From a virus (lineage: Duplodnaviria > Heunggongvirae > Uroviricota > Caudoviricetes), in IMG/VR virus record IMGVR_UViG_3300019935_000001, positions 36,145 to 100,144 of that record: a DNA stretch of 64,000 nucleotides. One strand, written 5' to 3'. Below, piece after piece: positions 175 to 57,167 of the stretch. Numbering within the stretch: the stretch's first letter is position 1; each line of letters opens with the position of its first letter. A program made the translations under genes and the position numbers. The notes beneath the pieces are model-generated. The model was not told the DNA's origin. It saw only the letters and a list, made by a program, of their open reading frames with translations, and searched no databases.

Positions 175-1305
175 TCAGAATCGCGGCGTAACCCACCGAC
201 CGGTTTGGATTAGATTCAAGCAGACGTTGATTCCCTTCTGAACCGGCCACCACTCCATCGAACCAAACTTCAACGACCAGTCGATCTCCCTAAGCAAGGT
301 CTTCACCCGATCTGGAGCAATCCCCATTTTCTCAAGTCTGGTTTTCACCTGCAGACGAATGTGCGGAAACATCTTCCACGAATCGCGCGAATGCGCTCCT
401 GTTGTCGTATAACATATCTCCGTAGGAGATTTATTTACCTTAGTACTTTGTGTCCCAGATTTGCGACCCCCCTGGCTGTCACCTCTGACACCCCCGCTGT
501 GAGTATCTTTTGTCAGTTCGGGCTGACTTGTCAGAGCGTTTCTAAGCGCGTTCAAATGCCGAATTGCTGTATTGTCACTACTTCTCTGTTTGCGCTCGTT
601 CTGAGCTAAAGCAGAGCGTTCTGCGGGCACATTCTCGCCGGGTTTCGGCTGTAGATTTCGATCTGAACAACCTTCTTCACATGTGCTGTGCTGAAAATCA
701 TAGTCGCGGATAGTCGCGATATATTCTGGTTGTTCAATTTGATCTTTGTAGTAGTCGCGGATAGTCTCGCTAATATCGTCTGGTTGCTCGCATAGTCCCG
801 GATAGTCGCGGTATTCATTGATTTTATTGTTAGAGTCGCGAACAGTCGCGGGGCAATCTTTCTTTACCTTCCGAATCTCTTCAAACTCATGTGCCGTTAT
901 CTGCTTGCTGATCACCTCGCGGGGGGTCGCGGACTTTCGTATCTTTTCCATTTCCTTCATCGGTAGTCGCGGACCATAGATGTTAGGCAAACTCTCACCG
1001 TCTGTTCCATTTCTCGTGACCACCAAAAGATAACCACCTTCCCGAAGCTCTTTGATTAATCGCCAGATAGTTGACTCCGACTTGCCTGTCGCAACTTTAA
1101 GGTAAGTCGCGGAGGCTTCAGTCTTCATGCCTGGTTTAAGCGCTGCCAACCTGTAAAGATTCAGCCACAGGATTTTGGCGGCGTCTGACAAGCCTGATCT
1201 CAGAAGCACATGGTCAATTACAGATGTCGCAAGGATGCGATATTCGTATCGCTCGTTGAGATATTGAAGCTGCTTCTCTGAGCAGGGTTCACACGGTCTG
1301 GACAT
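175..1305 (-). CDS. putative replication initiator (winged-helix N-terminal domain; iterons embedded mid-gene, lambda O-like layout)
   Basis: 376 aa. N-terminal wHTH-like segment (LSDAAKILWLNLYRLA...SESTIWRLIKELREGGYLLV). Central linker with repeated (T/S)IRDY peptides encoded by DNA repeats. Sits next to parAB. Confidence 0.6.
   Translation of the reverse strand: MSRPCEPCSEKQLQYLNERYEYRILATSVIDHVLLRSGLSDAAKILWLNLYRLAALKPGMKTEASATYLKVATGKSESTIWRLIKELREGGYLLVVTRNGTDGESLPNIYGPRLPMKEMEKIRKSATPREVISKQITAHEFEEIRKVKKDCPATVRDSNNKINEYRDYPGLCEQPDDISETIRDYYKDQIEQPEYIATIRDYDFQHSTCEEGCSDRNLQPKPGENVPAERSALAQNERKQRSSDNTAIRHLNALRNALTSQPELTKDTHSGGVRGDSQGGRKSGTQSTKVNKSPTEICYTTTGAHSRDSWKMFPHIRLQVKTRLEKMGIAPDRVKTLLREIDWSLKFGSMEWWPVQKGINVCLNLIQTGRWVTPRF
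701..851. repeat. iteron array: four tandem pairs of a 10-bp TAGTCGCGGA-type repeat
   Basis: Pairs start at 701/711, 752/762, 793/803 and 832/842. Core GTCGCG(G/A). An AT-rich patch lies at 812-831. Extra copies at 924, 964, 1103, 2418, 2448, 2488 (reverse) and 3364. Confidence 0.7.
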
Positions 1306-8693: not shown

Positions 8694-9269
8694 ATGACAC
8701 GACCACAAAATGCACCAGGCTGTTACGGCGTGGGCATTGCCTCCATGAAGAGTCCTGTCTGTAAAGAATGCGCAGCTCGTGAGGGTTGCGCAGAACGAGC
8801 TGTAGAGAACCTGCAGCTCGCTTCCGAGACGGTTGATGTAACCGATTACCTCGCAGTACATGGCCTGGCGCCAAAGCATAAGGGCGAGATGCCCCGCCAC
8901 TATCTAGCAAAGGTGAAAGTCCGGAAGGCGACTCAGCAGGAGCTGAGCATGTTCACAACTATGCCCGCAAAGGCTCGATCCATTGCAGAGTCATTGGTGA
9001 AGAAGAACATCTGTCTTCACACGAGCCTATCAACGAACCAGAACCCCTTTAACACAAACAAACCTCAGTACCTGAAGCCCGTATTCGACATGATACTGAA
9101 CTCCGGGGCGGTGTCCCGCCGCTCGATTATCGACGCGATCCGCTTATCTGGCAGCTCTGCTGCAACTCAGCGATCTCAGCTGTCAACTGCAATAGGGCTA
9201 CTGGAAGGCACCGGAGTCCTGATCAGAGATGGCGCTGAAAATTACAAGGTAGCAAACCGTGACATTTAA
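8694..9269 (+). CDS. hypothetical protein (Cys-rich N-terminus)
   Basis: ATG at 8694 preceded by AAGGAG; the track ORF starts at 8661 inside cobS. Contains CYG..CKECAAREGC. Confidence 0.5.
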   Translation: MTRPQNAPGCYGVGIASMKSPVCKECAAREGCAERAVENLQLASETVDVTDYLAVHGLAPKHKGEMPRHYLAKVKVRKATQQELSMFTTMPAKARSIAESLVKKNICLHTSLSTNQNPFNTNKPQYLKPVFDMILNSGAVSRRSIIDAIRLSGSSAATQRSQLSTAIGLLEGTGVLIRDGAENYKVANRDI

Positions 9270-12200
9270 CCTGACGCACTACATTGGTTGCCGCACCCAC
9301 TTCAGTCTGGGCGAAAGCATCCTGTCCCCTAAGCGGGCCGTTAATGAGCTGTCCGGCATTGCGCCGAGCATGACGATTACCGACCTGAACTCTGTAAATG
9401 CTCTGCCGAAGTCCTACAAGGAGGCGAAGAGCGACGATTTGAATCTGAATTTTGGCGCTGTCTTTAAGGTCGTTGATGACCTGGAGTGGCGGAAGCCAAA
9501 GAAGGGTGAGAAAAAGACAGTTAACCATTTCTTCTCACCTCGACTGATCGCCAAGAATGTAGATGGCATGAAGGACATCATGCACTTGCTGTCCGTATCG
9601 AATGATGCAGACCACTTCTACATGACACCACAATGCTCCATTGAGGAGCTGATCGAGGCAGCTTCACGCGGCAACGTGTACGTGACCACCGGGGACACGG
9701 ATTCGCTGTTTGCGCACCCGGAATACAGAACAAAGCTAGTGCAGCTGGTACGCGCTCTGAAAGCGTCTGATTTGCTGTTTGAAGTCGTTCCAGTCTGCAC
9801 GGCATATTATGACCGTCTTAACGAAACGACGATCAGAGTTGCAGAGAGACTGTCTGCAGCCATGATCGTCACGCGACCGATCTATTACAGCTCCAGCATG
9901 AGCGGCACCCGCAACGCCATGTACTGCGTGAAGAATCGTAGCCAGGTAACAGAGCGCTGGCGCTCCGAGCCTGCAGTGAACAACCTGCACCCCCTGGTTG
10001 CTGCAGACATGGAGCAGGAGCTGAGCAACCTGATAGATCGAATGGTGCTGCGCGACCTGGATCGTGATGCTGTGACTGAAGCCCTGCACCGCGCTGTCGA
10101 TACCACCAACGCTCTGCCTGAAAAGCTGAACTACGCCTGGGAACCATATGACATCTGTCTACCTTCCATGAGTGATGATCCGTTTGGTGGGCTGGTAGAG
10201 ATCGTAAAGCAAGGCTGGACAGACCGGATCGAAAAGGTGGTATACGGGTTCCAACCAGATCAGAGCCAGCTACCGGAGTATCGGGAGCGCCTGAAGTACG
10301 AACTATCTGTCTTGAAGCGCATGGGCTTTGAGAACTACTTCCTTCTGGTGCATCAGGTGGTGTCGCAGGCTAAATCCATGAACATCATGGTAGGCCCGGG
10401 ACGAGGATCTGTAGGTGGATCACTCGTCGCATTTTTGATGGGGATCACCGATGTTGACCCTATCCGCTTTGGCCTGATCTTTGAACGATTCATCAACCCG
10501 GATCGACTCGACCTTCCTGATGCCGACCTCGACTTTATGTCCTCCCGCCGTGAAGACATCATTAAATGGTTGGTCAAAGAGTATGGCCAGGATTATGTGT
10601 GTGGCATCAGTAACTACGGTGAGCTTGGTGCATCTTCGGCACTAAGGAGCGCAGGTAAGATCCACGGCCTGACCGAAACCGATGTTTCATGCTCCAAACA
10701 GGTGCCGAAAGAGCACGGTTCCAGCAAGTCACTGGAAGAAGCGAGAGAAGAGGTTCCGGCAATCAAGGTCTTCGCAGATAAGCACCCGGAAGTGTGGGCA
10801 GACGCCTGCAACCTGCAGGGCATCTTCAACGTTTACGGCCAGCACGCTGCAGGTGTTGTAGTGGCCGGCGAACCCATCATTGAACGTGCTGTGGTTGAAG
10901 TCCGCAAAGGCGGTCAGCTCTGCAACTGGGACAAAAGCGTGGTCGAAGAGTTCGGCCTGGTTAAGCTCGATGTGTTGGGCCTGAGTAACCTGGATGTACT
11001 GCGCCTGGCAAAGGACTACATCAAAGAGCGTCATGGCGTAGCAATCGACTACGAGGATGTTCCGCTGGATGATCCGGACGTTCTGGCTGCATTCGGTGAG
11101 GGCAAGACAAACGCCGTGTTCCAGTTCGAGTCTGGCGGTATGAAGGGCCTGCTGAAGTCACTGGCAGAGTCCGGAAGCCTGACGTTTGAAGACATCGCAG
11201 CGGCAACCGCTCTATTCCGTCCGGGCCCAATAGACGCTGGCCTGATGGATCAGTATGTCGCCATCAAAAACGGCAACATGACAGAGACGTACCCGCATCC
11301 GATTTGTGAAGGCGCGCTGCGAGAAACATACGGGGTAATGGTCTATCAGGAGCAGGTAATGCAGATCGCTCGGGATCTGTCGGGCTTCTCGATGGCTGAA
11401 GCTGACAAGCTGCGTAAAGCGATCGGTAAGAAAGACGCCGACCTGATGGCATCAATGGGCGAGAAGTTCGTGCAGGGTGCTCAGGAGTCGGGCATGGCCG
11501 AAGTATCTGCACAGGCATTGTGGGATGACATCCTCGGCTTCGCGGCTTACTCCTTCAACAAGTCTCACTCTGTCGCCTACACGATGATCTCCTACCTGAC
11601 GATGTGGCTGAAGGTAAAGTACCCGGCAGAGTTCTTTGCCGCCTCAATGTCGATCCTGAAAGAAGAGAAGCTGCCTGGCCTGGTGCGTGACTGTACCGAA
11701 GCTGGCTTGATCGTAGTGCCCCCGGACATTAACCGCTCCACTGACAGGTTCGAGATTGGCTATGACGGTGCCAGACAGTGTGATTCTCTGATTATCCCGT
11801 TCCAGCGATTGAAGGGTCTATCCGAGAAGGCGAGCGCGGCGATTGTCGAGGCCCGTGAGAAGCGGAAAGAAGAGCAGGGCGATAGTCGCTTTGTTTCAAA
11901 GAATGACTTCCTGGGCTATGTGGTGAAGCGGGTGTGCAATGTCCGGGTACAAAGTGCCCTGGATGCGGTCGGTGCTTTCGCGGAAATCGAAGGTCAGATT
12001 CCAGCTCTGCACCCGGATCGAATCAAAGATCAGAAGACCCTGCTACCGGGACTGATCGCCAGCAATGTGAAGGCGGACAGAAAGATCGACCTGTCACCTT
12101 TCGTTCGGCGGGAGCTGGTCGGGCTGATGCAGGAAGCAAAAGACTGCTGCGAAACCTTCAAGGGTGAAACCGTTGTCGGCCCAGCAATGGCTAAAGGTCG

Positions 12201-12660
12201 CGTACCGAAATTCATGGTCGTGATGGATGCACCGAACTGGGGCGAGAAAGATGCTGGCGTCATGTTGAAGGGAAAAGCCAGCAGAGACGTGCTGACTGCC
12301 CTGGACGAAGCCGGGCTCAAGCCTAGCGAGGGTTACTTTACGGCTCTGTCGAAAATGATGAAGCCGAAAGGTGAGAAGCAGATACCACAGCAAATGCTGA
12401 TCGACTTTGGCCCTATCCTGGCGCAAGAGATCGAGCTGCTGAAGCCACCGGTGATTGTGGCGCTCGGAACGGCTGCGGCCCGCTTCCTTCTGCCTGATCT
12501 GAAAGGTGGTTGGGAAGAGATCGCAGGTACAAGCCACTACGATGCCAAGCGGGACTGCACGGTGGTGATCGGGTGCAACCCGTCAATGGTGTATTTCGAT
12601 CCCGACCGGATCAACATTATCGTGGACGCATTTGAAAAAGCACGGGAGATGACAGAATGA
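9259..12660 (+). CDS. dnaE: DNA polymerase III alpha-type (DnaE) polymerase with C-terminal UDG-superfamily-like domain
   Basis: 1133 aa. PHP-like N-terminus, then a colinear DnaE core (GPGRGSVGGSLVAFLMGITDVDP, VKLDVLGLSNL, FRPGP, FNKSHSVAY). The last roughly 150 aa resemble family-4 UDG. Confidence 0.9.
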   Translation: MTFNLTHYIGCRTHFSLGESILSPKRAVNELSGIAPSMTITDLNSVNALPKSYKEAKSDDLNLNFGAVFKVVDDLEWRKPKKGEKKTVNHFFSPRLIAKNVDGMKDIMHLLSVSNDADHFYMTPQCSIEELIEAASRGNVYVTTGDTDSLFAHPEYRTKLVQLVRALKASDLLFEVVPVCTAYYDRLNETTIRVAERLSAAMIVTRPIYYSSSMSGTRNAMYCVKNRSQVTERWRSEPAVNNLHPLVAADMEQELSNLIDRMVLRDLDRDAVTEALHRAVDTTNALPEKLNYAWEPYDICLPSMSDDPFGGLVEIVKQGWTDRIEKVVYGFQPDQSQLPEYRERLKYELSVLKRMGFENYFLLVHQVVSQAKSMNIMVGPGRGSVGGSLVAFLMGITDVDPIRFGLIFERFINPDRLDLPDADLDFMSSRREDIIKWLVKEYGQDYVCGISNYGELGASSALRSAGKIHGLTETDVSCSKQVPKEHGSSKSLEEAREEVPAIKVFADKHPEVWADACNLQGIFNVYGQHAAGVVVAGEPIIERAVVEVRKGGQLCNWDKSVVEEFGLVKLDVLGLSNLDVLRLAKDYIKERHGVAIDYEDVPLDDPDVLAAFGEGKTNAVFQFESGGMKGLLKSLAESGSLTFEDIAAATALFRPGPIDAGLMDQYVAIKNGNMTETYPHPICEGALRETYGVMVYQEQVMQIARDLSGFSMAEADKLRKAIGKKDADLMASMGEKFVQGAQESGMAEVSAQALWDDILGFAAYSFNKSHSVAYTMISYLTMWLKVKYPAEFFAASMSILKEEKLPGLVRDCTEAGLIVVPPDINRSTDRFEIGYDGARQCDSLIIPFQRLKGLSEKASAAIVEAREKRKEEQGDSRFVSKNDFLGYVVKRVCNVRVQSALDAVGAFAEIEGQIPALHPDRIKDQKTLLPGLIASNVKADRKIDLSPFVRRELVGLMQEAKDCCETFKGETVVGPAMAKGRVPKFMVVMDAPNWGEKDAGVMLKGKASRDVLTALDEAGLKPSEGYFTALSKMMKPKGEKQIPQQMLIDFGPILAQEIELLKPPVIVALGTAAARFLLPDLKGGWEEIAGTSHYDAKRDCTVVIGCNPSMVYFDPDRINIIVDAFEKAREMTE

Positions 12661-17070: not shown

Positions 17071-18372
17071 GGAGGGTGTTCACCGTTCTGTGTCACCGTT
17101 TTATTCACAGGTCGACATACTGGTCGATTCTGTCAGGGAAGTGGATGCTCAGCTGAGACAGCGTGAGGTTCCAGTTCTGCACTGGATGCGTCCACTTCTC
17201 TGAGGCCCTCAATATGCCCGCATAGAGCAGCTTCAGCAGGCTGTTTTCATTGGCGAAGCCACCCTTGGTTTTGGTCAGTTTCCGGAACTGACGGTGCACG
17301 GCCTCAACTGCATTGGTCGTGTAGATCGCACGCCTTACCTGTTCCGGGTACTTGAAGTACACCGACAGGTTCTCCCACTTGCTACGCCATGACTTGATGA
17401 CCAGCGGGTACTGTTTCCCCCACTTTGCCTCCAGCTCGTCCAGCGCCTGCTCTGCGGCGTTTCGCGTCGCCGCCTTGTAGACGCATTTCAGATCCACCAT
17501 AAATGCCTTCTGATTCTTGCTGGCGACGTACTTCATGGAGTTGCGGATCTGGTGAACAATACACAGCTGTACTTCTGTTTCCGGATAGATGCTTTCGATC
17601 GCTTCAGGAAAGCCTTTCAGACCATCCACAGAGGCAATAAGGATGTCTTTCAGACCTCGATTCTGCAGATCTGTCAGGACGCTGAGCCAGTAATGTGCAC
17701 CTTCATTTTCAGACAGATAGAGTCCCAGCAGCTCCTTCTTACCTTCGATGGTTAGCCCAAGAATGGTGTACACCGCTTTGGAGATGAAACGACCATTCTC
17801 TTTCACTTTGTAGTGAATGGCATCCAGCCAGACAAAAGGGTATACCGGCTCCAGATCACGCTCTTGCCAGGCTTTAAGCTCCGGCACCAGGCGATCAGTT
17901 ACGGCGTTAATCATGCCGTTGGAGACGCTCATACCGTACATTTCACAGATATGGTCACGGATGTTCTGGTAACTGCTGCCTAATGCAAACAGAGACAGTA
18001 TCTTGCCTTCCATTTCATCAGTCAGACGGGTCTGATATTTCCTGACAGTCTGGGGCTCAAATGAGCCATTGCGATCTCTCGGCGTCTCCAGCTCGAACTC
18101 GCCAGCAGCGGTTTTGACTGTTTTCTTTGAGGTGCCATTTTTCCGATTGGCGGCCGGATTTTCTGCAAGGTGCTCATCAATCTCTGCACCCAATGCGGCT
18201 TCAGTGATCTGTTTGATCAGTGGTGTCAGGAGGCCATCCTTGCCATTGAGGTTCTGTCCAGATTGCAGCGCTTTGGCAAACGCCTGAATATCGATTTCGT
18301 ACTTGTCAGACATGATGTGTCGCTCCCCGTTTCACTCAGTGTAGGAAACGACACAGAACTCTGAACACTACC
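17071..18372 (-). mobile_element. IS256-family insertion sequence (about 1.3 kb)
   Basis: Single Mutator-type transposase gene. Imperfect terminal inverted repeats: GGTGTTCACCGTTCTGTGTC (about 17075-17094) versus the reverse complement of GACACAGAACTCTGAACAC (18350-18368). No target-site duplication could be identified. Confidence 0.7.
17105..18313 (-). CDS. IS256-family (Mutator-type) transposase
   Basis: 402 aa. Typical family N-terminus (GKDGLLTPLIKQITEAALGAEIDEHL) and core (WLDAIHYKV, VDGLKGFPEAI, CIVHQIRNS). Confidence 0.9.
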   Translation of the reverse strand: MSDKYEIDIQAFAKALQSGQNLNGKDGLLTPLIKQITEAALGAEIDEHLAENPAANRKNGTSKKTVKTAAGEFELETPRDRNGSFEPQTVRKYQTRLTDEMEGKILSLFALGSSYQNIRDHICEMYGMSVSNGMINAVTDRLVPELKAWQERDLEPVYPFVWLDAIHYKVKENGRFISKAVYTILGLTIEGKKELLGLYLSENEGAHYWLSVLTDLQNRGLKDILIASVDGLKGFPEAIESIYPETEVQLCIVHQIRNSMKYVASKNQKAFMVDLKCVYKAATRNAAEQALDELEAKWGKQYPLVIKSWRSKWENLSVYFKYPEQVRRAIYTTNAVEAVHRQFRKLTKTKGGFANENSLLKLLYAGILRASEKWTHPVQNWNLTLSQLSIHFPDRIDQYVDL

Positions 18373-19745: not shown

Positions 19746-19761
19746 GGGCTTACTTATCAAT

Positions 19762-19872
19762 ATGAGCCGCATTATGATTCTGGACTCACTCAAAAACATC
19801 GGCGAAACGGGGCTTGTAGCCTTACTCGGTGCTTTCGCTTTTGGTAGTGAAATCATCGGTATTCTTTTCTAA
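19762..19872 (+). CDS. possible 36-aa hydrophobic peptide
   Basis: MSRIMILDSLKNIGETGLVALLGAFAFGSEIIGILF. The ATG lies 5 nt after a CTTACTTAT motif variant. Below the ORF-track cutoff. Confidence 0.25.
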   Translation: MSRIMILDSLKNIGETGLVALLGAFAFGSEIIGILF

Positions 19873-19908
19873 TTACCATTCGATTCCCCAAGGAAAAGCG
19901 TTTATTTC

Positions 19909-19944
19909 GTAAGTCAGAGCTTATAAACTTATGCTCTGACTTAC
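19909..19944. promoter_or_regulatory. extended form of the dispersed palindrome (12-bp arms)
   Basis: GTAAGTCAGAGC-N12-GCTCTGACTTAC, 25 nt upstream of sbcD. Confidence 0.5.
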
Positions 19945-42367: not shown

Positions 42368-42443
42368 TAGCCACTTCTGATCTACCTGTTGCCGATTGAG
42401 AAAATACATTCATCGGCAACAACACACATAGAGACAGAGAATT

Positions 42444-46087: not shown

Positions 46088-46853
46088 TGTTGCTTTCTGA
46101 TACTGAGAGCAGACCTGTTGAATATGCTGCGCCATGAACGATGTAGAAAATGCCCTTTTTGACTCAGAAGTGTCCCCGGCCAGCCCCAAACTTATCATTG
46201 CTGATAGTTGGCCCTTGATATACCCCCGGAATACCCCCAGCGAGTGAAGAGTCATCGCTCGTATTTGCTCAGAAGAAGCGCCAGCTATAACCAGGTCAGC
46301 TTCAGCCTGCTGAATGTCTTCCGTTATCTGGTGAGTATCCAGATCCAGACCTGCATATGTCTTACCTCCTCTTTTTTTCATATTTGAGGAGAAGAGACAA
46401 GCGGTTGGAGTGTATAGCCGCTTCAGATGCTCCTGGTACGCCGCATGAAGCGTTGGATAGTACTCCACTGTTGAAGTCACTTCATTAGCGTGGCTAGAGC
46501 CAGTGTCGCCATAGACTTTTTAAGCATCTGTATTGTCCCTTTGATTCAACGCAGGCCGTATAGTAATTGAATCAACGATCACTTACAAAGACAGTCAGAC
46601 CAGCATCTCTGCACTACATCGACAGACTCATCTGAAAGCATCGCTGTATCGTCCGCAGAACAGCGCACAGCAAGCGCACACAGAAGATACGAGCAATCAC
46701 ACTGCTCGGCTATTCGGGCGCTCAGAACGCAATACAGAAAGCCGATCCATTCCGCTACCAAAAGCACTGCAGGATACCCAGCTGCCAGCTCTGATCAGCC
46801 TGATCCCGCTTGAGAAAATACAAGCGTCACAACGACACACAAGGAGACAAATT

Positions 46854-47174
46854 ATGACCACCTTGAGAATCCCGGTTGAAGCTGCCCGGAAGTTGCTGAT
46901 GCACTGTGAAAAGATCGGATCGGATCAGCTCGCATTTCATGCGTCAGCAACAGACGGGGCATTCTTCAGCACGGAGCACGATAGTAACCCGCTGTATCAT
47001 GTGCCGGGCTACGAACCCGGCAGCAAGCATTGGCAGCAAGAGATAGAGGCAACGTTCGGTATCGAGCCTGTTTCTATCAATGTGCCACTGCAGCTGCTGC
47101 AGCGCCAGCTCGACAACCATGACACCGGCGTGTTCTCTGTGAGGATAGATCGGGAGAACTCAATCATCACCTAA
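46854..47174 (+). CDS. hypothetical protein
   Basis: 106 aa. GACACACAAGGAGAC leader. Confidence 0.55.
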   Translation: MTTLRIPVEAARKLLMHCEKIGSDQLAFHASATDGAFFSTEHDSNPLYHVPGYEPGSKHWQQEIEATFGIEPVSINVPLQLLQRQLDNHDTGVFSVRIDRENSIIT

Positions 47175-47582
47175 CCTATAAGCAGCGCGATCTGCACCGG
47201 TTGTAAATGACCTGATTTTGTAGACCGCGCTGCAACCGAGCACTAACCCGGATACACCCGAAACCGGTACCAGGCTATCACTCCCGTATAACCCCCATAC
47301 AACCAAATTTAACCTGATCACCGAGAGATCCTCCCCCGCTGTCCATTCAAGGAAAACTCTGACCCCCAGATCAATCAGACACCACATGATTTTTCACGCT
47401 ACCAATTAAACCAAAATGCCTACCGACACGAGCATTACCCCTCTATAGGGAACCTTCATGCCCGCTATGGGAATTTACGTGGTCAAATGAGCCAAATTGT
47501 TTACCAGCACCATCAACACCAATTCCGCTCAAACCCTCATAAACGCTGACACTCCGGCCATTTCTCTCACCACCAACCATAC

Positions 47583-47736
47583 ATAGAGCACCATAGAGCC
47601 CCTATAGACACATACCATAGAGAAACACACGCCTATAGAGGCAACTATACCCATAGGGACACATACACACGCTCGCACAGGACATACGAACATAGAGGCT
47701 CACGCTCGTATAGAGGAGACATAGACCGGTATGGAG
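47583..47736 (+). repeat. array of ten same-strand ATAGAG-type hexamers in a CA-rich non-coding stretch
   Basis: Copies start at 47583, 47593, 47604, 47617, 47635, 47653, 47692, 47710, 47721 and 47731 (ATAGAG x6, ATAGAC x2, ATAGGG, ATGGAG). Confidence 0.7.
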
Positions 47737-48285
47737 ACACGCAGGGTACATGTAAGAAAAAGCGTTGGAGCCGGATCGCCAGCTTGCCTCTGTCAACCTT
47801 CAAAATATTTTGCTTATGGATAAGCCAGAGGTTCTTGAGTGGTTGACCATGGCCTGCATGCTGACAGGGTGTCCTGTTTACAGAAGGTTCCCCAGCAGAG
47901 CCAGTGTTTGAATCAAGGCTCATGGCTGCCATGTCGGTATCTGTGAGGTTATCCATGGCCAGACCAATCACCGGCGGCTTCCCTACAGGATATGACCCAT
48001 AGAGAGGATCAGGTGACCTGTGTATGGCTGGCAGCCCCTTATCGGTTATGTCCATAGTATTTTGCTCATATAAGTCAGAGCGCTGGGTAGGTTTACCAGA
48101 GGCTTGCCCATGGTTGACCTGCTCCAATTGAGCCTATGGGTCACATCCGGATCAGCTTCAGGACGCCATGATTTCGACTGGGGTAGCTGAGCAAAGCCTG
48201 ACGATGCCATGAGCCATCGCTTAGTAGACCAGCAACTCATCTGTACTATTACTGCATTAGTTAAGCACGGACAAGGACCGTAAGT

Positions 48286-48576
48286 ATGAAACAAGAAGCG
48301 ATGATTGAACTGATGACTGTGGCTGTGGCGCAAGAGCTGATGGAAGCTGCAGAGGGATTACTGGTGGAGTATGCAGAGGGTAAGGACGTTCTGCACTCTA
48401 GCCCGCGCAGTAAGATCCGTCGCCTATCGCGTGCATCCATGTTTGTAGATGCACTGCCGGGTATGGATGGGGCTGCAGTCGGACACATGATCAATGAGCT
48501 GGACGATCTGGGAGTGATCGACCGCATGGAGGGCTGTTCAAAGGAACGTGTCGCTGAAGGACTCGTGCTTAGCTAA
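48286..48576 (+). CDS. hypothetical protein
   Basis: 96-aa ORF followed by a terminator. Confidence 0.5.
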   Translation: MKQEAMIELMTVAVAQELMEAAEGLLVEYAEGKDVLHSSPRSKIRRLSRASMFVDALPGMDGAAVGHMINELDDLGVIDRMEGCSKERVAEGLVLS

Positions 48577-48606: not shown

Positions 48607-48630
48607 GCCCGGCCATGTGTCGGGCTTTTT
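48607..48630 (+). terminator. intrinsic terminator
   Basis: GCCCG-9 nt-CGGGC followed by TTTTT. Confidence 0.55.
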
Positions 48631-49213: not shown

Positions 49214-49502
49214 CCAGGGAGCCGCAGGGATGCGGTTTTGCCTTCAAATCGGGTAGGTTTACCTTGGCAACACCTCCCAAGACCCTCGCTTCACTGCAGG
49301 CAAAGACAGTCTTCCTAAACGTGGCTACGTGCACGTATGAGGTCGTCACAGGATTACCTGCATCATTTGCTGTCTGACAGATCAAGTCCCGTCATATGGC
49401 CCCCTATGTGGCTTCTGAGAGGTCTTCCAGCCGCCAGATCTGATTCGCTATAGCAGTGTTGATAAAATGTAAGCTCAAACTTACAAACACATAGAAACTG
49501 CT

Positions 49503-52098: not shown

Positions 52099-52118
52099 AT
52101 AAGTCAGAACTGACTTAT
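52099..52118. promoter_or_regulatory. dispersed palindrome ATAAGT-N8-ACTTAT
   Basis: ATAAGTCAGAACTGACTTAT. Confidence 0.5.
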
Positions 52119-53592: not shown

Positions 53593-55095
53593 ATGTTGTA
53601 CCGGATTATTGTCGCCAAGGGTGCTAACTATGGCCGGGTGCTGGGAGCCCACGTTTCAGATTCCGCTGCAGGTCGTGCCCTGGGCAAAAACAAGCAGGAG
53701 TTTGGAACAGGCTCGGTACTACTAATCGAAACAGACGAGCGACTGGTGCAGGGTGTGTGTTACCCGGATGTTGCCGATCAGGGTATTGCCGATCATCACC
53801 ATAAGTCAGGTATGCGCCTGATGGAACTGGTCATTAAAAACCGGGCCACCGGTGAAGTGCCGGATTGGGTGATTGCCAGCATCATAGATGAAGGCTGGAC
53901 GATGGATTCGCTGAGCCAAGAGTTTGGGCCGCTGGTTCACCAGAAAATGGAGCAGGAGCGCCGCGAGCACCAGAAGCGGGCAGAGCGCTCTGCAATGATT
54001 CACGCAGGTCGCCTCTGGATGAAGAAAGAGATCGATGACCACGTTATCGAGCTGCCAGCCATTACAGGAACCCAAGCTCGCCGCCAATTCTTCACCGTTC
54101 AGATGACTCTGCAGCAGGTTGACCGGCTTTTGACTGCAGATCACAACGATCTGGCCCCTGAAGATCGCAGCCAGCGCAAACTGAACCCGGCACGGGGCAA
54201 AAAGCTGGGCGGGTACATTGTTGGGAACCACGACAGCTACGTTCTGCCGGCCATCACCGTCTGTATCGATCCGGATATGACCTTTGACCCGATTGAAGGG
54301 TTCGGCGGGGCAGTTGGCACCCTGAAAATACCGGTAACGTCTCTGGTCTATATCATTGACGGCCAGCACCGGCGTGAAGGTATCCGGTGGGCCTTGTCCG
54401 CTCAGTCGCTCCGCTGGCAGATGCAGAAGGAGACGATTGCGGTCACCATTTACTACGATGAAGGGCCTGAACGGCGTCAGCAGATGTTCTGTGACATCAA
54501 CTATCCAGCTGTCCGGGTGTCATCCTCTTTGAACATGCTCTACGACCGCCGAAACTCACTGAACCACTGGATTCTCGATATTTTGGCTAAAAATCAGTCA
54601 ATTTGGGGTCGAATTGAGCTGGATAGCGCGAGCGTAGGTGCCCAAAGTTCCAAATTGTGGGCCGTAGTCGCCATGAAGAAGGCTCTCCTCACGGTTTTGG
54701 GGTTGTCAGAAGTGCAATTTTTCACCAAAACCGATGAAAATCGGGCCGAAATGGAAAAGGTGGTCGATAGGTTCTTCGACACTCTGGCAGAATATCTGCC
54801 GCGCTGGGGCATGGTGATAGACCCGGATTGCTCCGCTCCGGACATCAGGAGCGACTATATTGTTGGCCACGCTGTTTTCCTGCAGGCGCTAGCTATCGTT
54901 GCCCGCAAAGCCCAGGAAGAAGAGGGCGGCTGGCAGAAGCTGTCCGGGCTGGCCAAGCTCGACGTAGCGCGAGATTCAGAAGTGTGGGAAGGTAAATGTG
55001 TCGTCAATGGAAGGATGAACCGGTCGGCAGCCGGGGCCAACGCCACTGCGGCAGAAATTTGTAGCCAGATTGGCATAGAAATGGACTGGAGTTGA
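53593..55095 (+). CDS. DGQHR-domain (DndB-like, ParB/Srx fold) protein with about 165-aa unknown N-terminal domain
   Basis: 500 aa. YIIDGQHRREGIRWAL and QQMFCDINYPAV (the DndB-family QxFxDxN motif). Confidence 0.75.
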   Translation: MLYRIIVAKGANYGRVLGAHVSDSAAGRALGKNKQEFGTGSVLLIETDERLVQGVCYPDVADQGIADHHHKSGMRLMELVIKNRATGEVPDWVIASIIDEGWTMDSLSQEFGPLVHQKMEQERREHQKRAERSAMIHAGRLWMKKEIDDHVIELPAITGTQARRQFFTVQMTLQQVDRLLTADHNDLAPEDRSQRKLNPARGKKLGGYIVGNHDSYVLPAITVCIDPDMTFDPIEGFGGAVGTLKIPVTSLVYIIDGQHRREGIRWALSAQSLRWQMQKETIAVTIYYDEGPERRQQMFCDINYPAVRVSSSLNMLYDRRNSLNHWILDILAKNQSIWGRIELDSASVGAQSSKLWAVVAMKKALLTVLGLSEVQFFTKTDENRAEMEKVVDRFFDTLAEYLPRWGMVIDPDCSAPDIRSDYIVGHAVFLQALAIVARKAQEEEGGWQKLSGLAKLDVARDSEVWEGKCVVNGRMNRSAAGANATAAEICSQIGIEMDWS

Positions 55096-55098
55096 GAT

Positions 55099-55344
55099 AT
55101 GGACACAATAGGCCGAATGGTGTCGCAGTGGGCGACTGAAGATAAGGAACAGATCAATGCGCTGGTTGAGCAGCATGGGGATCTGGTAGTGGAAGTCACC
55201 GGTGCCGACGATGGTTGTGTTTATGCCACCGCGGGCACCTATCGTCTGTCTCTGAACCCGGAGGCTGTCAACGAAGAGGTAGACAACAAGTCTATTAGCG
55301 ACATTCGCCACCTGATCCTGAAAGTGTACCCAACGGTCGATTAG
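55099..55344 (+). CDS. small acidic hypothetical protein
   Basis: 81 aa. Starts 4 nt after the DGQHR gene stop. The ATPase ATG follows 11 nt after its stop. Confidence 0.5.
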   Translation: MDTIGRMVSQWATEDKEQINALVEQHGDLVVEVTGADDGCVYATAGTYRLSLNPEAVNEEVDNKSISDIRHLILKVYPTVD

Positions 55345-55354
55345 ATTGGTAACA

Positions 55355-56185
55355 ATGAAAATCAGAAGACTGAAGATCAACAACTTCCGGGCATTCGGCC
55401 AGTTTGAATGCGAGTTCGAGCCTGGGATCACCGTTCTGACAGGGCTGAACAGCTCAGGAAAAACAGCGGTTCTGAAAGCCATCATCGTGGCAGCTGGCCA
55501 GGACAGAAAGATTCAGACTTCTGATATTCGCCAGACTCGTTCCTCTGCAGGTTCGGGTCTGATCTCTACAGAGCACCACCTTCCTGTGAACATTGAGGTG
55601 TGGGAAGACAGCGACACAGACCCGATCCTGGTCGCATCCCGTCAAAAGCTGAAAGGCAGAACCTCTCAAGCCGGATACATTGGCCCAATCTGCTACTACG
55701 ACAGTGGCAGGCGGAATATCGACAATCCCTCACCTGAATCCCTGGCCCTGGCCAGACAGGCACTGGACATCGTTCTGGAGCCTGTTGGCTGGAGCAACGT
55801 GCGGTACATTCCCGGTATCGATCAGATCTGTGCAGACCATGACGCTCAGGGTACAGCCCCAGTGGCCGCAATAGGTGGAATCGGAAGTGTCATTGATATG
55901 GTGGCCGGGATCGCCCAGCAGGGCAGCCAGCTGGCTTTGATCGACGGGATAGATTTACACCTGCACCCCAAATGGCAGCAGATGATCCTGCCTGGTCTGG
56001 CAGCGGCCTTTCCCGATCTGCAGCTTATCGTGACGACTCACAGCCCATTAGTGCTGTCTACTGTGAGCCGGAGTCAGATCCGGGTGCTTCCAGATTTCGG
56101 AAATGGAGAGTGCGCAACCGTCCCAGCATGTGAGACGCTGGGCAAAGCCTGCGACGACCTGCTCACTGAGGCGATGGGAAATTAA
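55355..56185 (+). CDS. compact ABC/RecF-like ATPase (AAA_15/21-like)
   Basis: 276 aa from the ATG at 55355. MKIRRLKINNFRAFG, Walker A GLNSSGKT, Walker B/H-loop LALIDGIDLHLHP, TTHSPLVL. Confidence 0.7.
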   Translation: MKIRRLKINNFRAFGQFECEFEPGITVLTGLNSSGKTAVLKAIIVAAGQDRKIQTSDIRQTRSSAGSGLISTEHHLPVNIEVWEDSDTDPILVASRQKLKGRTSQAGYIGPICYYDSGRRNIDNPSPESLALARQALDIVLEPVGWSNVRYIPGIDQICADHDAQGTAPVAAIGGIGSVIDMVAGIAQQGSQLALIDGIDLHLHPKWQQMILPGLAAAFPDLQLIVTTHSPLVLSTVSRSQIRVLPDFGNGECATVPACETLGKACDDLLTEAMGN

Positions 56186-56520: not shown

Positions 56521-56892
56521 CTACTCAGCTAGATATTTTTCAAGTATCTCTGGTATACCCAGGCTTATAGCCAGCTTCAGAAGGGACTCTTCCAGAACCT
56601 CCGGCTCTGCCTTTACTGCGAACTCAACCTTCCGAGCCTTCCAGTCAAAGGTCTGTGGCATGTTGGAAACAACAACGCAGGCCTGGTCCAGATTGTTGAC
56701 CTTCACCTCTTCAGTGCCACCGTAAATCGAAGTGCTCACCGGCAGCACAGTGGCGCGTCCGGATTTGTTTTGTTCCTTTGTTGAGATAACAAGTGCGGGC
56801 CTGCGCTTGCCAATCTCTTTTCCTGCCTTCGGGTCAAACGTCACGATTACTAAATCGCCCTGACCCGGGATGTATCGACTTACCGATCCCAT
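56521..56892 (-). CDS. mazF: MazF/PemK-family toxin
   Basis: 123 aa. IPGQGDLVIVTFDPKAGKEIGKRRPALVIS. Confidence 0.8.
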   Translation of the reverse strand: MGSVSRYIPGQGDLVIVTFDPKAGKEIGKRRPALVISTKEQNKSGRATVLPVSTSIYGGTEEVKVNNLDQACVVVSNMPQTFDWKARKVEFAVKAEPEVLEESLLKLAISLGIPEILEKYLAE

Positions 56893-57167
56893 TCTGTCTC
56901 CACAGTTTCAAATAGATCGTCAGCCCGAAGGTTAGCCGGAGTCATCCCCGCAATCAGTTCATCCTGAGTGAAGGGAAGTTTATACCTCGGCTTCGCGCGC
57001 GGCGTGACAGCCTTAATGATGATCTCAGTACCTTGCGCCGCGATTTCTACTTCAGCGCCTTTTGTGATACCGGCTCTTTTCATCAGCGCAGCGGGCAGCC
57101 TAATAGCAGAGCTGTTGCCCCACTGACTGACCTGGCCAATGACCCTTCGGGTTTCTCGTGTCGCCAT
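56880..57167 (-). CDS. mazE: MazE/AbrB-fold antitoxin
   Basis: 95 aa. SQWGNSSAIRLPAALMKRAG. 13-nt overlap with mazF. Confidence 0.75.
   Translation of the reverse strand: MATRETRRVIGQVSQWGNSSAIRLPAALMKRAGITKGAEVEIAAQGTEIIIKAVTPRAKPRYKLPFTQDELIAGMTPANLRADDLFETVETEWDR

Follow-up and report, generated by a model that had tools for sequence, protein, structure and literature searches.

A gene-free, C/A-rich segment with a one-strand heptamer array in an SSU5-like phage-plasmid, possibly read into an untranslated RNA that carries leader mimics

Phage genomes seldom keep a kilobase of DNA that is devoid of genes. Several described systems combine untranslated or gene-free sequence with short repeated motifs and offer themselves for comparison with such a region. 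Among the sponge RNAs, CsrB and RsmZ titrate CsrA and CrcZ titrates Hfq/Crc, while AgvB is a phage-encoded anti-sRNA mimic directed against GcvB. The rut sites, such as that of lambda tR1, are Rho-dependent terminators, and P1 oriR/incA, R1 parC and pB171 parC represent the plasmid iteron origins and short-repeat centromeres. In phage T7, the left end bears the heptamer (C/A)(C/A/T)TAAAG in 12 same-strand copies spaced 13-28 bp apart, and the DNA in which they are embedded (nt 161-400) is composed of 37% A, 28% C and 11% G.

The DNA stretch analysed here, which is termed the window, comprises 64,000 nucleotides (64 kb) and constitutes the plasmid/replication half of an uncultured, metagenomic SSU5-like phage-plasmid, an element that is colinear along its full extent with Salmonella phage SSU5. 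The partition and plasmid genes of the window encode ParA/ParB, a Rep-like HTH protein, CobT and a MoxR-type ATPase, and the genes of DNA metabolism encode a DnaE-UDG fusion, a gp32-like SSB, RecA, SbcCD, RNR, ThyA, DHFR, DndB and a DEAD helicase. DnaB, primase and ligase genes lie directly to the left of the window, and those of the terminase, portal and capsid lie directly to its right. The original prediction had drawn attention to a 1.1-kb gene-poor, CA-rich segment (47175-48285) with same-strand repeats, and the features of this segment and its surroundings are as follows.

46791-46819, plus strand: promoter cassette CTGATC-17 nt-(TG)aGAAAAT, score 7.3, in the top 0.3% of all positions.
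46854-47174, plus strand: upstream flanking gene, an ORFan of 106 aa, with the leader ACACAAGGAGAC.
47182-47233: strong hairpin with a 15-bp imperfect stem and a 22-nt loop, -26.7 kcal/mol.
47234-47581, plus strand: C/A-rich, G-poor, repeat-free stretch, which includes the C>G maximum of the window.
47582-47736, plus strand: array of ten YATAGAG-type heptamers, six exact and four degenerate.
47582, 47592, 47616, 47634, 47691 and 47709, plus strand: exact YATAGAG copies.
47603 (TATAGAC), 47652 (CATAGGG) and 47720 (CATAGAC), plus strand: copies with one substitution.
47730 (TATGGAG), plus strand: copy with two substitutions.
47645-48055, minus strand: ORF of 136 aa from ATG, or of 160 aa from a TTG at 48127, called by one pipeline only.
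47784-47811, plus strand: sigma-70-like promoter match TTGCCT-16 nt-TATTTT, score 8.5, in the top 0.1%.
47792 (minus strand), 47841 and 48112: GGTTGAC.
47801-47826: two adjacent palindromes, CAAAATATTTTG and GCTTAT-GG-ATAAGC.
48068-48079, minus strand: TCTGACTTATAT, a half-site of the palindromic operator of the phage.
48085-48097, plus strand: GGGTAGGTTTACC module, one of three plus-strand copies, the others being at 49251 and 49785.
48221-48249, plus strand: promoter-like TTAGTA-17 nt-TACTAT, score 7.2, which precedes the downstream gene.
48286-48576, plus strand: downstream flanking gene, an ORFan of 96 aa.

The 1.1-kb feature is real, non-coding and statistically robust. As had been claimed, it holds no plus-strand ORF of 60 aa or more, the longest being one of 48 aa with a TTG start (47765-47911). 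The minus-strand ORF is judged, from its sequence properties, to be non-coding as well: its codon score is -0.08, compared with 0.10-0.29 for the credible small genes of the genome, no Shine-Dalgarno sequence was found before it, its sole match among 5.8 billion proteins was itself, no Pfam, PHROG or PADLOC match was obtained, and antisense ORFs of such length are common in the genome. A conserved protein gene across the region, the finding that the original prediction had named as its undoing, was thus sought by codon usage, homology and domains and was not found. Moreover, no Rfam family matched the region at the gathering threshold or at E <= 5, and a tRNA search of the region returned nothing.

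The predicted C/A-rich, G-poor character of 47175-47760 is borne out by its composition (A 32.4%, C 31.4%, G 17.4%, T 18.8%), and nowhere else in the 64-kb window is C>G as pronounced. At 100, 300 and 500 nt, the C>G skew of the segment (0.60, 0.47 and 0.37, respectively) is the highest of the 64 kb, and the runner-up at 300 nt, with 0.31, is situated within a minus-strand gene. At 0.66, the C+A fraction lies approximately 5 SD above the window mean, the skewed segment also shows the most extreme A>T bias of the window on the transcribed strand, and the C>G and C+A bias is on the same strand as the flanking genes. In the repeat-free stretch at 47234-47581, YC dimers are enriched (15.7 vs 11.9 per 100 nt), while the plus-strand RNA of the segment folds weakly, with the array mainly unpaired in the centroid structure. 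An A/C-rich style is common to other untranslated plus-strand stretches, for instance 46560-46850, and the region sits at the convergence, not the divergence, of rightward and leftward gene blocks.

The array likewise conforms to what had been predicted, namely ten ATAGAG-type repeats in one orientation and 10-39 bp apart, which resolve into six exact and four degenerate YATAGAG heptamers on the plus strand with start-to-start spacings of 10, 11, 13, 18, 18, 39, 18, 11 and 10. ATAGAG occurs six times in the region against 0.22 expected, a number that was reached in 0 of 500 dinucleotide shuffles of the region itself, whereas YATAGAG across the whole window occurs 15 times on the plus strand and 10 times on the minus strand vs 10.2 expected. 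A higher-order duplication of about 26 nt is discernible within the array (47616-47641 vs 47691-47716, 77% identical). The array is unique within approximately 82 kb of the element, and its composition is 37% A, 28% C and 22% G.

Copies of the same sequence exist in Logan, ENA and JGI assemblies, of which the longest contig measures 102,745 bp, and all public copies are 100% identical across 46.0-49.5 kb. Exact-protein look-ups returned nothing but such identical copies, and homology searches with the 106-aa flanking protein and the minus-strand ORF returned the query alone. Zero relatives were obtained from viral-contig protein scans with both flanking genes and a 207-aa protein, or from a genome-contig scan with a 260-aa protein. 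BLASTN of the region and of its 8-kb flanks against phage and plasmid collections produced no match except a 79-bp piece of DndB, and the DUF3846 relatives, which are at most 41% identical, come from unrelated phages without arrays. In addition, when viral and genome collections were scanned by pattern for CATAGAG arrays, the tandem repeats retrieved stood in unrelated settings, none of them with SSU5-like genes, and a metagenome scan using the 3' end of the upstream gene yielded one contig, which terminates at 47176. The literature search found nothing concerning this region in SSU5-like elements. Since all known copies are identical and no array-bearing relative was found in the viral, genome and metagenome scans, selection on the array cannot be shown.

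Each of the systems described above shares part of this architecture. With the sponge RNAs, the segment has in common the lack of translation and the many same-sense copies of a motif that is found at the ribosome-binding site of candidate target mRNAs, and with these RNAs and AgvB the C/A-rich, unstructured context that is also seen in the targets of GcvB; it differs in that the array RNA has no promoter or terminator of its own, its motif is neither GGA nor ARN, and it has no Rfam match. With the Rho-dependent terminators it shares a C-rich, G-poor, unstructured and untranslated RNA after a gene without an intrinsic terminator, and the predicted RNA fits this description, with C>G, YC richness and a length of at least 80 nt; its length, however, exceeds the need of such a terminator 5- to 10-fold, and a specific motif is repeated in it. 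The iteron origins and centromeres resemble it in that about ten short direct repeats are clustered in the same orientation, in places 10-11 bp apart, but here no Rep or Par operon adjoins the repeats, their core measures 7 bp, the spacing is irregular, the strand bias reaches beyond them, and parS-like and rep-linked repeats are situated elsewhere. The likeness to the T7 left end (nt 175-361) consists in a one-strand heptamer array (about 12 copies of the CCTAAAG form there, ten of the CATAGAG form here) in A/C-rich, G-poor DNA, although the T7 arrays occur on both sides of the junction and abut a 160-bp terminal repeat, while a single internal array on a circular phage-plasmid map is found here.

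The hexamer had been regarded as the core of a leader motif used before many genes, which proved to be true of some genes only. ACACATAGAGAC, with at most one mismatch, stands upstream of 6-7 genes, whereas the general leader, as derived from the 40 nt preceding every start codon, differs from it and reads ACAC(AC)-(T/A)(G/A)GAGAC, in short ACAC..(A/G)GAGAC, 4-8 nt before ATG, where the Shine-Dalgarno region lies. This leader is the ribosome-binding region, with a C/A-rich enhancer. Its variants include CTAGAGAC, CTGGAGAC, ACAGAGAC, AAGGAGAC and ATAGAGAC, and ATAGAG is one variant among them. Outside the region, 4 of 17 YATAGAG copies are located 7-10 nt before annotated starts (31574, 37751, 42444 and, on the minus strand, 50490), and two further copies precede likely starts (36743 and 56503, both on the minus strand); this share is far above the approximately 1% of the sequence that such start-proximal positions represent. 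One of these copies is operon-internal, so that a translational role alone is plausible for it, and an operon-internal leader (31555) leaves no room for a promoter. With a de novo matrix of ribosome-binding sites built from 64 genes, nothing in the array scored as high as 8 bits, and leader mimicry by the array units thus rests on one leader variant. Upstream of several leaders, at a distance of about 30 nt, an extended -10 promoter cassette is repeated, and many promoters are accompanied by the palindromic operator ATAAGTCAG-NN-CTGACTTAT.

The cassette at 46791 precedes the upstream gene, and the cassette of about 75 nt to which it belongs is also present at 42396 and 49459. The 106-aa product of that gene tentatively resembles one sliding-clamp domain in a single-sequence AF2 model (pLDDT 82). 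The hairpin at 47182-47233 is positioned directly 3' of the stop codon, at the left edge of the skewed segment, and has no U-tract on the plus strand. Because no intrinsic (U-tract) terminator was found after the gene at 46854-47174 and no good plus-strand promoter within 47175-47580, the segment would be produced only by read-through. No terminator was found 3' of the array either, and no discrete RNA is delimited by a promoter and a terminator; the first strong intrinsic terminator, at 48607-48625, comes after the downstream gene, whose 96-aa product gave a low-confidence model (pLDDT 57). The promoter match at 47784, which is the best of the region but was missed by a stricter promoter scan, begins 48 bp past the end of the array and is directed at the gene at 48286. 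The approximately 500 bp after the array are rich in palindromes and contain GGTTGAC three times together with two inverted TTATCCAT, and the palindrome GCTTAT-GG-ATAAGC can be read as an 8/9 DnaA-box-like TTATCCATA.

Taken together, the bias on the transcribed strand, the scarcity of structure, the read-through position and the repeats that match a variant of the ribosome-binding site make an RNA-level role the best single reading of the segment, although a tentative one: it is possible that the segment is an untranslated, Rho-prone plus-strand RNA carrying mimics of the leader at the ribosome-binding site. Transcription from the cassette at 46791 would pass the gene at 46854-47174 and enter 47234-47760, and this read-through would yield an untranslated, unstructured, C-rich RNA that could be loaded by Rho. 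Its 3' part (47582-47736) would consist of a tandemly amplified CAUAGAG(AC) leader mimic without start codons, which may act as a decoy competing with leader-bearing mRNAs for their reader, which could be the 30S subunit or S1 but also a repressor of translation or a small RNA. The translation of leader-bearing mRNAs would consequently be tuned by the amount of read-through RNA. We infer this decoy mechanism from the arrangement just described, and ten sites are too few to titrate ribosomes, so that a more specific partner would be required. All that the search for a cognate RNA-binding partner returned was an ORF with weak likeness to Sm/Hfq (LSM, E = 4e-4), which lies outside the window. A sponge of the Hfq/Crc type that works through ARN motifs was considered and rejected, such motifs being absent from the region. 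Of the three options offered earlier, an RNA that titrates whatever recognises the leader agrees best with the strand-specific composition and with the fixed place of the heptamer 7-10 nt before starts; the lack of a delimiting promoter or terminator and the failure of the search for a partner speak against it. The hairpin at 47182-47233 is a further point against the RNA-level reading, as it might halt read-through.

Gene-free repeat regions of phages and plasmids are usually cis-acting DNA sites, which favours the rival explanation that the array is bound by a DNA-binding protein of the phage and that the strand bias is secondary. Such a site, which is conceivable though somewhat doubtful, could regulate the promoter at 47784 from upstream, serve as a secondary or lytic origin, act like a centromere, or be recognised in packaging. 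It would fit the sub-cluster spacings of 10, 11 and 11, 10 bp, the end of the array 48 bp before the best promoter match of the region, the palindromes, GGTTGAC copies and inverted TTATCCAT of the following 500 bp, the sliding-clamp-like model of the upstream protein, and the iteron-like content of the same arm in an Aeromonas relative, where a 1.1-kb gap holds five tandem 17-bp repeats and AT-rich DNA. It leaves unexplained, however, the 350 bp of repeat-free C/A bias and the one-strand orientation. Helical phasing of the array is not significant (best Rayleigh p ~0.05 over 7 periods), no DNA-binding domain was detected in the products encoded adjacent to the array, and the gene blocks converge rather than diverge. 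The iteron-type origin, one of the options originally offered, is weakened on several further counts. Iterons are 17-22-bp repeats in regular, phased spacing, as opposed to a 7-bp core spaced 10-39 bp apart; no Rep domain was found in the flanking ORFans; and DnaA boxes are not enriched in the window (9 vs 11 expected), one 8/9 DnaA box and the short AT palindromes at 47801-47826 being what lies near the array. Four perfect 22-bp parS-like palindromes occur between parB and the Rep-like HTH_36 gene (175-1305), inside which ATAGTCGCG is repeated six times, and these palindromes and repeats, 46 kb off, probably account for the partition and plasmid-origin functions. For the other DNA-level option of the original prediction, a T7-type concatemer-junction or packaging array marking the ends of virion DNA, the stylistic likeness to the T7 left end stands, CATAGAG arrays with 10-13-bp spacing occur on unrelated phage contigs (L069/L152, L150 and L139, as well as L084, a contig of 41.6 kb close to whose end the array lies), and several short assemblies break off at 47177 or 47294 to start again at 47852. 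Those assemblies nevertheless break every 1-3 kb anyway and long contigs pass straight through the array, while no second array, no repeat fit for terminal redundancy and no single-subunit phage RNA polymerase were found in approximately 82 kb (the window plus 18 kb of flanks). The Terminase_6-type terminase is 19 kb from the array, and the SSU5 record begins at its own terminase, which speaks against a packaging site in general; the T7-type reading is regarded as highly improbable.

Alternatively, the segment could be a plain Rho-dependent terminator or insulator that ends the transcription unit of the gene at 46854, with repeats that are functionless by-products, the slippage or recombination debris of the leader and promoter cassettes by which small genes are shuffled in this arm. 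The C>G bubble, the YC richness and the little structure suit a rut site, the gene lacks an intrinsic terminator, and the next gene has promoter candidates of its own; moreover, the cassettes of about 75 nt repeatedly flank ORFan genes in the arm, the array looks as if leader pieces (ACAC, CATAGAG, GAGAC) had been scrambled and, recently, duplicated in part, and its conservation is not demonstrable with all copies identical. This explanation is nonetheless unlikely, for 590 nt far exceeds what a rut site needs, phage genomes seldom retain non-functional DNA, and the analogous element of the SSU5 family, which is described below, is conserved as strongly as its neighbours in sequence and not in composition alone. 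Another rival turns to the opposite strand, where 48079 is a possible leftward promoter, as judged from TCTGACTTATAT, whose 12 nt are identical with the operator/promoter of the minus-strand gene at 52108; its transcript would be antisense to the array. The leftward product would be either an antisense RNA, G/U-rich and with about ten CUCUAUG anti-leader seeds pairing with CAUAGAG leaders in the manner of GcvB, or a leaderless mRNA for the 136-aa ORF, and it would end at the hairpin at 47233-47182. In its favour, the ATG at 48055 is placed 15 nt downstream of TCTGACTTATAT, a weak hairpin (47643-47630) follows the stop of the ORF, the minus-strand RNA folds well (-224.8 kcal/mol, z = -2.6), and the hairpin at 47233-47182 is followed by UUAUAGGUU when read on the minus strand. 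The operator is present as a half-site only, though, with an unremarkable sigma-70 matrix score there, the ORF fails the codon, ribosome-binding-site and homology tests, and the anti-leader complementarity adds nothing beyond the heptamer itself, which renders a leftward product very unlikely.

The RNA-level reading gains a parallel from SSU5 itself, whose own C>G maximum falls in a gene-free region at approximately 90.4-91.9 kb of its record, in the same variable arm. At 66-97% identity, this SSU5-family element was detected in 859 PLSDB plasmids, whose hosts include Klebsiella, E. coli, Enterobacter and Salmonella. It is mostly without annotation, PGAP leaving a 1.6-kb gap there, and no Rfam family matches it. 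The gene upstream of the element varies among plasmids while the element is retained, and between lineages it is 67-82% identical, compared with 57-70% for the adjacent genes. An identity that at least matches that of the adjacent genes argues that the SSU5-family element is under selection. Its start, past the stop codon of the upstream gene, is formed by an inverted repeat that is conserved; it further contains an operator-like AAACAAGTTGTTT and carries about five same-strand CGCCATTAC... modules of approximately 32 nt, dispersed 41-139 nt apart. Three of these modules run on as ACACGGAGAAGAAC, which is near the SSU5 leader AAGGAGAAAACAC; the most conserved repeat core is nevertheless CGCCATTAC and not the SD-like part. 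A G-rich, non-skewed repeat part comes next. An apparent intrinsic terminator at the end of the E. coli version of the element was discarded, not being conserved across lineages.

The window region and the SSU5-family element are thus parallel in position and architecture, not in sequence. Both occupy the same arm of a colinear genome, are gene-free over 1-1.5 kb, and show the genome-maximal C>G on the gene strand; in both, a hairpin after the upstream stop is followed by same-strand repeats that are partly leader-like and then by a non-skewed, repeat-rich part. They differ in that there is no detectable sequence similarity, the repeat unit is another one, and the SSU5-family element has no YATAGAG enrichment: nhmmer --max with the family alignment against the window region gave no match at E <= 10, and TATAGAG is present in the family element but not enriched. 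The Aeromonas relative departs from the parallel, its tandem 17-bp repeats in that arm being unaccompanied by a C/A bias. That the two are related we infer from analogy, and this analogy suggests that such an untranslated element may be a regular part of SSU5-type phage-plasmids.

Were the leader-mimic RNA to prove true, it would represent a decoy that the phage encodes against its own signals for translation, a level of regulation not described for phage-plasmids; were the segment merely a long Rho terminator accompanied by the remnants of slippage, the finding would be ordinary. The more solid by-product is the SSU5-family element, a non-coding element of 1-1.5 kb with gene-level conservation that is unannotated and absent from Rfam. 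SSU5-family plasmids are widespread in Enterobacteriaceae and some of them carry resistance genes, and the element is amenable to direct study in cultured strains (SSU5 and pHCM2-like plasmids). A broader reading, which is considered distinctly unlikely, holds that each SSU5-type lineage keeps its own C/A-rich decoy RNA of approximately 0.6-1.5 kb, which carries start-codon-less leader copies and sets the translation of the leader regulon, perhaps linking it to Rho activity, during the switch from plasmid to lytic growth, the array of the window being a rapidly evolving member of this class. The phage-plasmids that such a reading would cover number in the hundreds and are carried by clinical Klebsiella, E. 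coli, Enterobacter and Salmonella.

A gene-free element of 1-1.5 kb, which is C>G-skewed and bears repeats, is found in the SSU5 family (JQ965645 ~90,380-91,900, equivalent to 40380-41900 of L172, a part of that SSU5 record; also in L173-L177, further copies of the family's element). Such a gene-free, repeat-bearing element is kept by 859 SSU5-like plasmids at an identity of 66-97%, being conserved equally well as the adjacent genes, and it carries no PGAP annotation and has no Rfam entry. A gap of comparable position occurs in an Aeromonas element:

Record 96,620-97,759 of pKAM376_1 (46620-47759 of L179): gene-free gap of 1.14 kb, located in the same variable arm as the spacer of the window

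The gap harbors five 17-bp tandem repeats (CGGGRAKYCCTCATTTG), followed by AT-rich DNA, as well as three CCCCACGGGTNGCCACGGGC repeats, and this repeat layout is iteron-like.

One-strand CATAGAG arrays with a spacing of 10-13 bp were also observed on unrelated phage and bacterial contigs (L084 1-300; L069/L152; L150; L139; L197). On a 41.6-kb phage contig, one such array is situated ~130 bp from the contig start, and another array is a fivefold tandem repeat of CATAGAGACC adjoining a gene start on a 107-kb MAG contig. In the window itself, short contigs from ENA, JGI, and Logan break off at 47177 or 47294, a further one begins at 47852, and the C/A-rich skewed segment is therefore skipped in some assemblies. 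Low coverage or population heterogeneity could be the cause, and the breaks are weak evidence because the assemblies concerned are interrupted every 1-3 kb anyway.

Three kinds of regulatory or intergenic sequence recur along the window:

Window 5159, 12911, 13622, 19748-19935, 27366, 30901, 35297/35351, 38717, 52108/52109, 59215/59216, 62925: palindromic operator-like motif ATAAGT(C/A)AG-NN-CTGACTTAT
Window 42396, 46810, 49459: promoter-plus-leader cassette of ~75 nt, CTGATC..TTGAGAAAATACA..ACACATAGAGAC
Window 48085, 49251, 49785, plus strand: GGGTAGGT(T/G)(T/A)ACC, intergenic, in the same arm as the spacer

Many promoters have the operator-like motif lying across their -10 region, which suggests that many operons are governed by one repressor, with C1 of P1 as a parallel. 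The ~75-nt cassette is repeated upstream of ORFan genes unrelated to each other, and resembles the mobile regulatory cassettes found in the hyperplastic regions of T4-type phages. The third motif was observed three times against an expectation of 0.11, and a module of ~60 nt including GGTTGACC/GGTCAACC is common to the copies located at 48085 and 49785.

Two further repeat sets are associated with the partition and replication genes:

Window ~1409-1600 (9705-9908 of L168, an overlapping stretch of the same element): perfect 22-bp palindrome TTTGTCGTACCGGTACGACAAA, four copies, in the interval that separates parB from the Rep-like gene
Window 700-850: ATAGTCGCG, present six times within the gene for the Rep-like HTH_36 protein (175-1305, minus strand)

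The palindromes, spaced by 46, 46, and 78 bp, probably constitute the parS centromere. The ATAGTCGCG copies, with spacings of 10, 41, 51, 30, and 10, form an array that resembles iterons and is located in the initiator gene itself.

Several other genes of the element were also recognized:

Window 9259-12660: DnaE (Pol III alpha) with a C-terminal uracil-DNA-glycosylase-superfamily domain (residues 984-1110)
Window 17105-18313: IS256/Mutator-family transposase
Window 53593-56185 and 56521-57167: DndB together with an AAA ATPase of PtuA-like type; toxin-antitoxin pair MazE/PemK
L168 18034-18333, minus strand: 99-aa ORF outside the window, adjoining a DnaB-like helicase gene

The transposase is probably multi-copy in the sample, since a 75.8-kb Logan contig ends inside its gene, and the DndB/PtuA-like ATPase and MazE/PemK pairs are defence-like cargo. 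The 99-aa ORF was weakly similar to Sm/Hfq proteins (LSM E = 4e-4, Hfq E = 2e-3) and matched by BLASTP the annotated Hfq at the syntenic position of the Aeromonas plasmid pKAM376_1 (E = 2e-9), and may represent an Hfq-like protein encoded by the phage-plasmid.
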